Shown piece by piece: positions 11,728 to 11,804 of a stretch of 14,562 nt of DNA (the first letter of the stretch is position 1; every line of letters starts with the position of its first letter). Under the pieces are notes generated by a model, which worked only from the letters and a program-made list of their open reading frames with translations, did not search any database and was not told the origin of the DNA. Source of the stretch: a virus; the UHGV virus genome UHGV-0177146; one strand, written 5' to 3'. Made by a program: the position numbers and the translations under genes.

Positions 11728-11804
11728 TGCGGGTATAGAGAAAGGGCGTCTCACATGTCTCATTAGCATGGTATCGGCAGGTTCGACTCCTGCACCCGCC
11801 TCCA
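11728..11804 (+). tRNA. tRNA-Met or Ile2 (anticodon CAT), CCA encoded
   Basis: Acceptor TGCGGGT/ACCCGCC with an unpaired 1:72 position, anticodon arm CATGT-CTCATTA-GCATG, T-arm GCAGG-TTCGACT-CCTGC. Confidence 0.65.

Follow-up and report, generated by a model that had tools for sequence, protein, structure and literature searches.

The window, by which we mean the whole stretch of 14,562 nucleotides analyzed here, derives from a myovirus of the Felix O1-like type (Felixounavirus); in the tRNA region it shares 98% identity with phage UAB_Phi87 and matches 345 phage records. ARAGORN places 19 tRNA genes in the window, all on the + strand, between 11475 and 14473. A consensus scan found two sigma-70-like promoters just 5′ of tRNA-Pro, at 11328 and 11419, the latter (11419..11448, + strand) combining TTGACA, an 18-nt spacer and TAAAGT with a TG extension; to judge from this match, the transcript that carries the tRNA described below probably starts there. 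Gene order then runs Pro, Glu, spacer, a tRNA with a CAU anticodon, spacer, Asn, Tyr and Asp, and a second CAU tRNA follows further into the island. We refer to these two genes as the upstream (11728-11804) and the downstream (12676-12752) tRNA(CAU). The upstream tRNA(CAU) is the only member of the island in which positions 1 and 72 are unpaired; they are paired in the other 18 of 18. CCA stands immediately 3′ of position 73 in 17 of these 18 other tRNAs, and in the 13 of them that were checked the discriminator fits the E. coli identity rules.

The upstream gene is called tRNA-Met(CAT) at 11728-11804 by ARAGORN, and the minimum-free-energy fold of this segment is a cloverleaf with six acceptor pairs. 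It covers 77 nt of the + strand including an encoded CCA, and we describe it as a candidate initiator-type tRNA(CAU) on the ARAGORN call, the fold, a score of 28.5 bits with the Rfam tRNA model and homology to the tRNAfMet of phage T5. The 5′ acceptor strand (11728..11734) reads U1 G2 C3 G4 G5 G6 U7, of which G2-G6 are identical to E. coli metZ tRNAfMet, and the 3′ strand (11794..11804) comprises A66-C71, C72 (11800), U73 (11801) and CCA (11802-11804). G2-U7 pair with A66-C71, and U1 (11728) lies opposite C72, both unpaired, which bears out the T1/C72 mismatch and the U73 that an earlier note on this DNA had read from its letters. The connector AUA (11735..11737) has three bases, the canonical U8-N9 and one extra by fold and structural alignment, whereas that of T5 tRNAfMet and of the tRNA on IMG/VR contig 3300045988_063805 (hereafter L048) has two. 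The D arm (11738..11752) consists of GAGA/UCUC (G10:C25, A11:U24, G12:C23, A13:U22) with a 7-nt loop, AAGGGCG. The anticodon arm (11754..11770) has the stem CAUGU/GCAUG and the loop CUCAUUA, with the anticodon CAU at 11761-11763 and U37, in place of the usual purine, at 11764. The three G:C pairs of initiators are indeed missing from this stem, as the earlier note had remarked: the pairs are U29:A41, G30:C40 and U31.G39, and G30:C40 alone is kept. A six-base variable region, GUAUCG (11771..11776), one base longer than usual in the fold, precedes the T arm (11777..11793), which has the stem GCAGG/CCUGC and the loop UUCGACU. U37, the AUA connector, the six-base variable region and the presence of U73 in both CAU tRNAs are additions to what that note had described.

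Covariance models score this gene low. The Rfam tRNA model gave no match to it in a scan of the whole window at the gathering threshold, nor in a 2.1 kb scan at E<=10, and in a 131-base scan its 28.5 bits fall under the 29-bit gathering score, because of U37, the three-base connector and the six-base variable loop. The Rfam alignment starts at G 11729 with position 66 deleted, ARAGORN run on a short fragment starts at the same base, and the tRNAscan-SE bounds published for the orthologue of phage Sf14 likewise begin at the equivalent of G 11729, a register that puts the missing pair at 7:66. A different stem register, which the earlier note had tied to an ordinary elongator Met, does appear in covariance-model alignments, but it is a renumbering of an identical structure. 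Both registers describe one physical helix: in either numbering six pairs stack on the five-pair T stem, so that U 11728 and C 11800 face each other at the end of an eleven-pair stack. We place the gap at 1:72 because T5 tRNAfMet and L048 combine the same U-GCGGGU start with a two-base connector, and because the encoded CCA falls as in the neighboring tRNAs only under this numbering; the mature 5′ end may be U 11728 or G 11729. Isotype scoring, proposed earlier as a check, has been published for the Sf14 orthologue and yields no usable answer (tRNAscan-SE, 32.3 bits; best isotype Cys, 28.8), and with scores this uninformative the check would not have settled the question. A tRNA-Cys origin, to which U73, the T loop UUCGACU and the published top Cys score might point, was considered and rejected: identity to E. 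coli cysT is 31/58 structural positions, and Cys is the top model also for several unrelated Sf14 tRNAs.

The spacers on either side of the upstream tRNA(CAU) hold two of four Y-RNA-like elements, recognized by their motifs and fold at 11641-11719, 11808-11873, 12222-12304 and 12312-12449. The window has four copies of their left motif, CAGAAGACC-N5-CAGCAA, where 0.01 would be expected, and nearly every Ounavirinae locus that spans the full region likewise has four; the right motif, GGTCTGG, is present in each of the four elements. All four share a closing helix whose outer four pairs vary between copies yet are complementary. We considered the spacer motif CAGAAGACC...GGTCTGG as a promoter and rejected it, since the sigma-70 scan does not flag it and its ends form the closing helix, in which the copies covary. 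Inside the fourth element are a T arm, a D arm and an intervening stem-loop at the place of the acceptor stem, with three covarying stem versions among relatives. The YrlA Y RNAs of bacteria have the same architecture and are encoded beside Ro60 genes (PMC4201824). By this analogy the four elements appear Y-RNA-like and the fourth resembles a YrlA-type tRNA mimic, while the Rfam YrlA model detected none of the four; a circularly permuted or tandem-remnant tRNA at 12312-12449 was set aside in favor of the mimic because the neighboring protein is Ro60-like. This protein, of 471 residues, is encoded at 9894-11309, immediately upstream of the island, and is annotated as 'vWFA protein' or 'RNA-binding protein'. 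It has the Pfam domains DUF2828 and DUF7788 and the DxSxS metal-site motif of vWA domains, and it returned no match in a PDB sequence search or in NCBIfam. AlphaFold modeled it with a pLDDT of 89 when given 49 homologs and of 45 from the single sequence. The 12 best full-length PDB structure matches of the model are all Ro60/TROVE proteins (Xenopus, human, Deinococcus Rsr and Thermus phage phiLo), with E-values of 2.5e-8 to 1.2e-6 and query-normalized TM-scores of 0.37-0.65, and the protein is thus predicted to be Ro60-like. In the accessible literature, phage Ro60 proteins are described from mycobacteriophages, CcrColossus, phage G and phiLo, and the Felix O1 group is not among them.

Conservation of the upstream tRNA(CAU) was assessed in 36 copies from Ounavirinae, which fall into 11 sequence types and come from Felixounavirus, Mooglevirus and Suspvirus. 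The gene is kept in 36/36 copies with no indels; no change occurs in the acceptor stem, C72, U73, CCA or the T loop, and position 1 is U or C, never G. Three columns of the variable region vary, and the T stem carries double changes from C:G to U:A and from A:U to U:A; one U.G intermediate is also seen. The search pattern that assembled this set specified the anticodon arm, and the arm is identical, too, in those orthologues that a search with only the 3′ half recovered. When 15 distinct sequences of the region were aligned, 7 of the 77 tRNA columns proved variable (9%) versus 63 of 168 (38%) in the two flanking spacers (Fisher p = 1.7e-6), and the adjacent tRNAs Pro, Asn and Tyr have 4-10% variable columns. 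The conservation in 36 copies, together with the low variability relative to the flanks, indicates that the feature did not arise by chance; the upstream tRNA(CAU) is under purifying selection, as are its neighbors.

A distant BLAST search of the region against 50,697 phage records returned two groups only, Ounavirinae and approximately 87 T5-like phages, and the T5-like matches, the sole ones outside Ounavirinae, fall on a gene annotated tRNA-Met. The T5 copy is T5t14 of NC_005859, tRNAfM(CAU), at 32428-32505, for which RefSeq notes "initiator tRNA fMet", and its sequence is identical to the Epseptimavirus copy. tRNA-Pro lies directly upstream of both T5 tRNAfMet and the upstream tRNA(CAU). 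T5-like phages carry three CAU tRNAs, in T5 itself tRNAfM, a separate tRNAM and tRNAI2, a trio that parallels the cellular fMet, Met and Ile2, and 1:72 is unpaired only in the fMet copy. According to its title as cited in PMC4810235, a 1975 PNAS article by Chen et al. reported that T5 encodes separate Met and fMet tRNAs. In structural-position identity, with E. coli tRNA sequences taken from the genome record, the upstream tRNA(CAU) is closest to L048 (49/58) and T5 tRNAfMet (45/58), followed by E. coli fMet (36/58), the tRNA-Met of T4-like phages of the PG7 and CBH8 type (35/58), E. coli Met (metT, 33/58) and E. coli Ile2 (ileX, 31/58). When the tRNA was searched by BLAST in 5,426 E. coli genomes, it gave zero matches, and a recent host origin is accordingly rejected.

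The upstream tRNA(CAU) carries many of the marks by which bacterial initiators are told apart. These include the CAU anticodon, the lack of a Watson-Crick 1:72 pair, G2:C71, C3:G70, G4:C69, A11:U24, G12:C23 and G30:C40. The determinants of the formyltransferase are an unpaired 1:72 and G2:C71, C3:G70 and G4:C69, with A73 of minor weight (PMC9976931; PMC6265465); a purine-11:pyrimidine-24 pair is also initiator-specific, and MetRS requires essentially the CAU anticodon alone (PMC9976931). Across 234 bacterial genomes, A11-T24 and G12-C23 were described as 'complete discriminators of fMet', and C3-G70 separates Met and fMet from Ile (Silva et al., PMC1635315). Of these elements, the upstream tRNA(CAU) lacks A73 alone. 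The gene departs from the bacterial initiator rule in four respects: one instead of three anticodon-stem G:C pairs (the full set being at 29:41, 30:40 and 31:39), U73 instead of A73, U37, and a 7-10 connector and a variable loop that are each longer by one base. The earlier note's interpretation holds in part. Its step from an unpaired 1:72 to an initiator-like tRNA is supported, and the T5 tRNAfMet homology and the acceptor, D-stem and G30:C40 marks make it much firmer. The absence of the three G:C pairs is not a counter-argument, since T5 tRNAfMet also lacks them, 67 of 71 CAU tRNAs among the phage matches listed (see below) do so too, and the middle G30:C40 suffices in E. coli (PMC5389676). 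Mutagenesis in E. coli found this middle pair to be essential, and sufficient in suitable contexts; cg/GC/cg variants, with pyrimidines at 29 and 31, gave poor initiation and growth (PMC5389676).

To place these features in a wider family, IMG/VR was scanned with a pattern of the T loop and ACCCGC-NN-CCA, which returned at least 120 loci; a sample chosen by this acceptor and T-arm pattern describes tRNAs with that stem, not all phage CAU tRNAs. Among the matches listed, at least 71 are distinct CAU tRNAs with an N-GCGGG acceptor, of which 56 lack a Watson-Crick pair at 1:72, 14 pair there as U:A or A:U and one as C:G, whereas 1:72 is paired in 6/6 listed non-CAU tRNAs that share the acceptor stem. 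In the same listed CAU tRNAs, G30:C40 is present in 69/71, all three G:C pairs in 4/71 and a purine at position 11 in approximately 80%; the UA/GC/UG stem of the upstream tRNA(CAU) recurs in 10 and its CUCAUUA loop in 12, and C72 occurs together with U73 in 11 of 13 cases. RNAalifold, applied to 27 family members from the listed matches and E. coli metZ, recovers the cloverleaf with 1 and 72 unpaired and with covariation in 12 of 20 pairs.

The downstream tRNA(CAU) (12676..12752, + strand) was called by ARAGORN and scores 51.5 bits with the Rfam tRNA model. Its acceptor stem has seven pairs, confirming the perfect stem ascribed to it earlier, and it has C11:G24 and U73. As U73 is common to both CAU tRNAs, it does not tell them apart, contrary to its use in the earlier note as a distinguishing mark of the upstream copy. 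On these features the downstream gene is of the elongator type, and we lean modestly towards elongator Met over Ile2. C5:G68 and the 5′ GGUUC, which it has in common with T5 tRNA-Ile2, point to Ile2. U4:A69, which it also has, is a Met-like feature according to work on TilS, and the rarity of AUA, 5.2 per 1000 codons in the window ORFs, points to Met. So do the scores of the Sf14 study for the orthologue of this tRNA, 45.2 for Met and 28.6 for Ile2. A phage-encoded TilS, which had been suggested as something to look for, is needed for neither reading, as host TilS would serve.

Structure, T5 tRNAfMet homology, identity elements, conservation and covariation are all observed directly in these genes, and from its descent and identity elements the upstream tRNA(CAU) is very probably initiator-type. 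We further consider it likely that the gene specifies a phage tRNA of the tRNAfMet class that is functional, the homolog in the Felix O1 group of T5 tRNAfMet. It would be co-transcribed with the island, and host RNase P and 3′ nucleases would trim it to a 77-nt tRNA ending in the encoded CCA. Host MetRS would add methionine by way of the CAU anticodon. The lack of a Watson-Crick 1:72 pair, combined with G2:C71, C3:G70, G4:C69 and A11:U24, suggests that host formyltransferase would formylate this methionine and that EF-Tu would bind the tRNA poorly. IF2 could then bring the fMet-tRNA to the 30S P site, where the retained G30:C40 may be the minimal anticodon-stem signal required to pass IF3 and enter 70S complexes, and the phage would thereby hold its own supply of initiator tRNA while infecting. 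Counting against initiator function are the pyrimidine:purine pairs that flank G30:C40, U73, U37, the irregular geometry and the low covariance scores.

The gene might instead be an elongator tRNA-Met with a frayed acceptor end, which would insert internal Met and supplement the host pool, or a dual initiator and elongator. In mitochondria, a single tRNA-Met serves both initiation and elongation. The CAU anticodon and the tRNA-Met annotation in many records fit such a role, as does an anticodon stem that is not initiator-like apart from G30:C40; and were the downstream tRNA(CAU) an Ile2, the phage would otherwise be without its own elongator Met. E. coli tRNAfMet mutants, moreover, can fill both roles (PMC6265465). 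We nonetheless find an elongator improbable, because the gene lacks the elongator marks of a paired 1:72 and pyrimidine-11:purine-24 (G1:C72 and C11:G24 in E. coli metT), and A11-T24 is reported only in fMet (Silva et al., PMC1635315). None of the 36 orthologues places G1 opposite C72, the T5 homolog is an annotated initiator in a phage with a separate elongator Met, and the island also holds a fully paired second CAU tRNA. A tRNA-Ile2, in which host TilS would make C34 lysidine and AUA would be read as isoleucine, is hardly credible, even though the anticodon is CAU and phage CAU tRNAs are often really Ile2, of which T5 has one. IleRS uses A73, and the upstream tRNA(CAU) has U73, together with U37 in place of A37 and an unpaired 1:72. 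G4:C69 and G5:C68 stand where Ile2 usually has C4:G69 and C5:G68, and C3:G70 is the Met/fMet state (PMC1635315); t6A37, in turn, is used by IleRS (PMC9976931). AUA is rare in the window ORFs, at 9% of Ile codons, and ileX is among the lowest in structural identity.

The irregularities of the gene could alternatively mean that it no longer acts in translation. The extra connector base, U37, the six-base variable loop and the borderline covariance scores would suit a tRNA-like RNA that serves as a decoy for host tRNA nucleases or toxins, as a processing or structural module of the transcript, or as a partner to the Ro60-like protein and to the Y-RNA-like elements beside it; the gene lies between two Y-RNA-like elements, approximately 420 bases downstream of the Ro60-like gene, and the T5 record likewise lists several 'tRNA-like stable RNAs of unknown function' within its tRNA set. 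To such a role we give little credence, given that CAU, U33, the T loop, the encoded CCA and all acceptor identity elements are invariant and that the gene is conserved to the same degree as the adjoining bona fide tRNAs. Moreover, the tRNA mimic of the island (12312-12449) has a loop-closed acceptor stem, which the upstream tRNA(CAU) does not. The low covariance scores, the two one-base insertions relative to its nearest relatives and the fact that several annotation pipelines skip the gene could also be those of an initiator-tRNA pseudogene in decay, kept by recent common ancestry alone. This is very improbable for a gene found in three genera (Felixounavirus, Mooglevirus and Suspvirus) with zero indels, with compensatory T-stem substitutions and with a variability four-fold below that of the adjacent spacers.

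An initiator-type gene at this position bears on published statements about phages and the VapC nucleases. VapC reportedly cleaves tRNAfMet in the anticodon arm. The authors of the Sf14 study hold that neither CAU tRNA of that phage is fMet, and argue that, as there is no tRNAfMet, the anticodon-loop changes cannot relate to VapC; according to another recent paper, enteric phages avoid genes for the VapC target. Reading the upstream tRNA(CAU) as an initiator contradicts both the Sf14 and the avoidance statements, and its recognition as initiator-type reopens the VapC question in a testable way. The row for its orthologue in Table 2 of the Sf14 paper looks as though the entry for the second CAU tRNA had been copied with a shift, and it conflicts with the supplementary tRNAscan output of the same paper; the row was accordingly left aside. 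In the Felix O1 group, in which over 250 phages of E. coli, Salmonella, Shigella and Citrobacter have been sequenced, copies of the gene are either unannotated or labeled plain tRNA-Met; standard annotation tools pass over it or take it for an elongator-style tRNA-Met, and this has led the recent papers to deny such phages an initiator tRNA. Phage initiators are called too rarely by isotype covariance models that were trained on tRNAs of cells. We speculate that two altered parts of the tRNA, the anticodon arm with U37, A38-G39 and ua/GC/ug and the acceptor end with U.C and U73, might give insensitivity to host nucleases or toxins directed against the host initiator tRNA. Extended to Felix O1-like, T5-like and some T4-like enterobacterial phages, this becomes a tentative and on balance doubtful proposal, namely that their rule-breaking initiator tRNAs could be adaptations that escape host weapons against tRNAfMet and yet are formylated and used. 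The traits in question would be G30:C40 as the only G:C pair, a U.C, U.U or C.C end, U73 and sometimes U37, and the weapons would be the VapC nucleases of Shigella and Salmonella, acting on the anticodon arm, and acetylating toxins, acting on the acceptor end. If this proposal were true, the surveys that take such phages to avoid tRNAfMet would have reasoned the wrong way round, because standard isotype models miss phage initiators.

The kind itself is not new, T5 having provided a phage initiator tRNA in 1975, and T5 tRNAfMet is also the closest known system. It has, as does the upstream tRNA(CAU), U1-GCGGGU/ACCCGC with 1:72 unpaired, U73 and an encoded CCA, A11:U24, G30:C40 as the sole G:C of the three anticodon-stem pairs, U31.G39 and a six-base variable loop. 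The T5-type pattern of an open N1-GCGGGU/ACCCGC-N72 end with U73 and CCA, and of G30:C40 with U31.G39, is thus present in the homolog described here, and the canonical connector and loop lengths are not. The two differ further in that T5 tRNAfMet has U72 (U1.U72), A37 and A29:U41, a two-base connector and a 9-nt D loop, whereas the upstream tRNA(CAU) has C72, U37 and U29:A41, a three-base connector and a shorter, 7-nt D loop; the Rfam tRNA model gives 43.6 bits to the former and 28.5 to the latter. Judged from the gene sequences, the traits that had caused hesitation in the earlier note, including the single anticodon-stem G:C and U73, already occur in this accepted phage initiator.

Other relatives share different subsets of these features. 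L048, the nearest relative outside the Felix O1 group among the matches listed, has the same T arm, the same D stem and the loop CUCAUUA with U37, but its U1:A72 forms a weak pair, its discriminator is A73, its connector has two bases and its variable loop five. In T4-like phages of Klebsiella, Enterobacter and Serratia (e.g. PG7 and CBH8), the tRNA-Met shares U1.C72, U73, GCGGGU/ACCCGC and CCA, and differs in its full G29-G31/C39-C41 stem, the loop UUCAUAU and a canonical geometry. With E. coli tRNAfMet (metZ/W/V/Y), the upstream tRNA(CAU) has in common the CAU anticodon, an unpaired 1:72, G2:C71, C3:G70, G4:C69, G5:C68 and G6:C67, the D-stem bases G10 A11 G12, the pair G30:C40 and the encoded CCA; it differs from the C1.A72, A73, G29:C41, G31:C39, A37, G7:C66 and standard connector and variable-loop lengths of the E. 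coli molecule. In the anticodon stem, its reliance on G30:C40 is shared with the au/GC/gu initiators of Mycoplasma and rhizobia and with E. coli cg/GC/cg mutants, which keep only this pair and still initiate (PMC5389676). The natural cellular variants retain purine:pyrimidine pairs at 29:41 and 31:39, whereas the ua/GC/ug stem described here has pyrimidine:purine at both, an arrangement that performs poorly in E. coli. The upstream tRNA(CAU) therefore offers a natural test case of how much of the three-G:C rule is needed.

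Immediately 5′ of the tRNA island (19 ARAGORN tRNA genes, window 11475-14473, + strand) lies a gene for a 471-aa protein (window 9894-11309, +), for which database entries offer no more than the labels DUF2828/DUF7788, 'vWFA protein' or 'RNA-binding protein'. The protein combines a vWA domain bearing a DxSxS site with a helical ring domain. An AlphaFold model built with 49 homologues as input reached a pLDDT of 89, and all 12 of its top PDB matches are Ro60 proteins (E 2.5e-8 to 1.2e-6). The protein is Ro60/TROVE-like. Its family is widely carried by phages, with 2552 matches at E<=1e-5.

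Within the island, four paralogous Y-RNA-like elements are sited between tRNA genes, at window 11641-11719, 11808-11873, 12222-12304 and 12312-12449, all on the + strand; two of them flank the initiator-type tRNA(CAU) gene (11728-11804, +). Each of the four carries a left motif, CAGAAGACC-N5-CAGCAA, together with a right motif, GGTCTGG, and the left motif occurs four times in the window against an expectation of 0.01. The closing helix features an AGA bulge and four outer pairs that covary from copy to copy. Nearly all Ounavirinae loci that span the whole region likewise have the motif four times, and an Rfam search returned no match to any of the four elements. Our guess is that the Ro60-like protein is their binding partner.

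The fourth element (12312-12449, +) additionally surrounds a YrlA-type tRNA mimic, comprising a T arm (GAAGG-UUCGAUU-CCUUC), a D arm, and a stem-loop (ACUCGGC-AGAU-GUCGAGU) that occupies the place of the acceptor stem. The stem at this place exists in three distinct versions among relatives, each of which is fully complementary. At first sight, this element has the appearance of a permuted tRNA.

A probable tRNA-Trp(CCA)-like gene was found at window 13296-13378 (+), with the acceptor AUGGGAC/GUCCCAU, G73, an encoded CCA, the loop CUCCAAA and an oversized D region. Neither ARAGORN nor the Rfam tRNA model made a call here, and the sole match is a weak, 23-bit hit to the tRNA-Sec model. For the related phage Sf14, a tRNA set serving no more than 19 amino acids has been reported. 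Among the called genes, tRNA-Ser(UGA) (13392-13481, +) reaches just 31 bits against the Rfam tRNA model and, of all the island's tRNAs, it alone lacks an encoded CCA when framed as ARAGORN calls it. In tRNA-Glu(UUC) (11559-11636, +), 49% of columns vary among relatives, compared with 4-10% in neighboring tRNAs; allele replacement or misalignment may be the cause, and one record annotates the slot as a tRNA-Phe pseudogene.

The second, elongator-type CAU tRNA (12676-12752, +) also possesses U73; the fMet, Met and Ile2 tRNAs of E. coli all have A73. At position 32, the window copy has U32, whereas most relatives have C32. For the first Met_CAT of Sf14, the orthologue of the initiator-type gene, the published isotype scores are internally inconsistent: the Cys score is 56.9 in Table 2 and 28.8 in the supplementary tRNAscan output (PMC12482277). 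The Table 2 row also parallels that of the second Met_CAT, with three columns identical, and is probably an error.

Amid the tRNA genes of phage T5, the source of a homologous tRNAfMet, several RNAs are annotated as 'stable RNAs' or as 'tRNA-like stable RNAs of unknown function' (NC_005859, record coordinates 30284-33949). These T5 RNAs may correspond to the Y-RNA-like elements described here.
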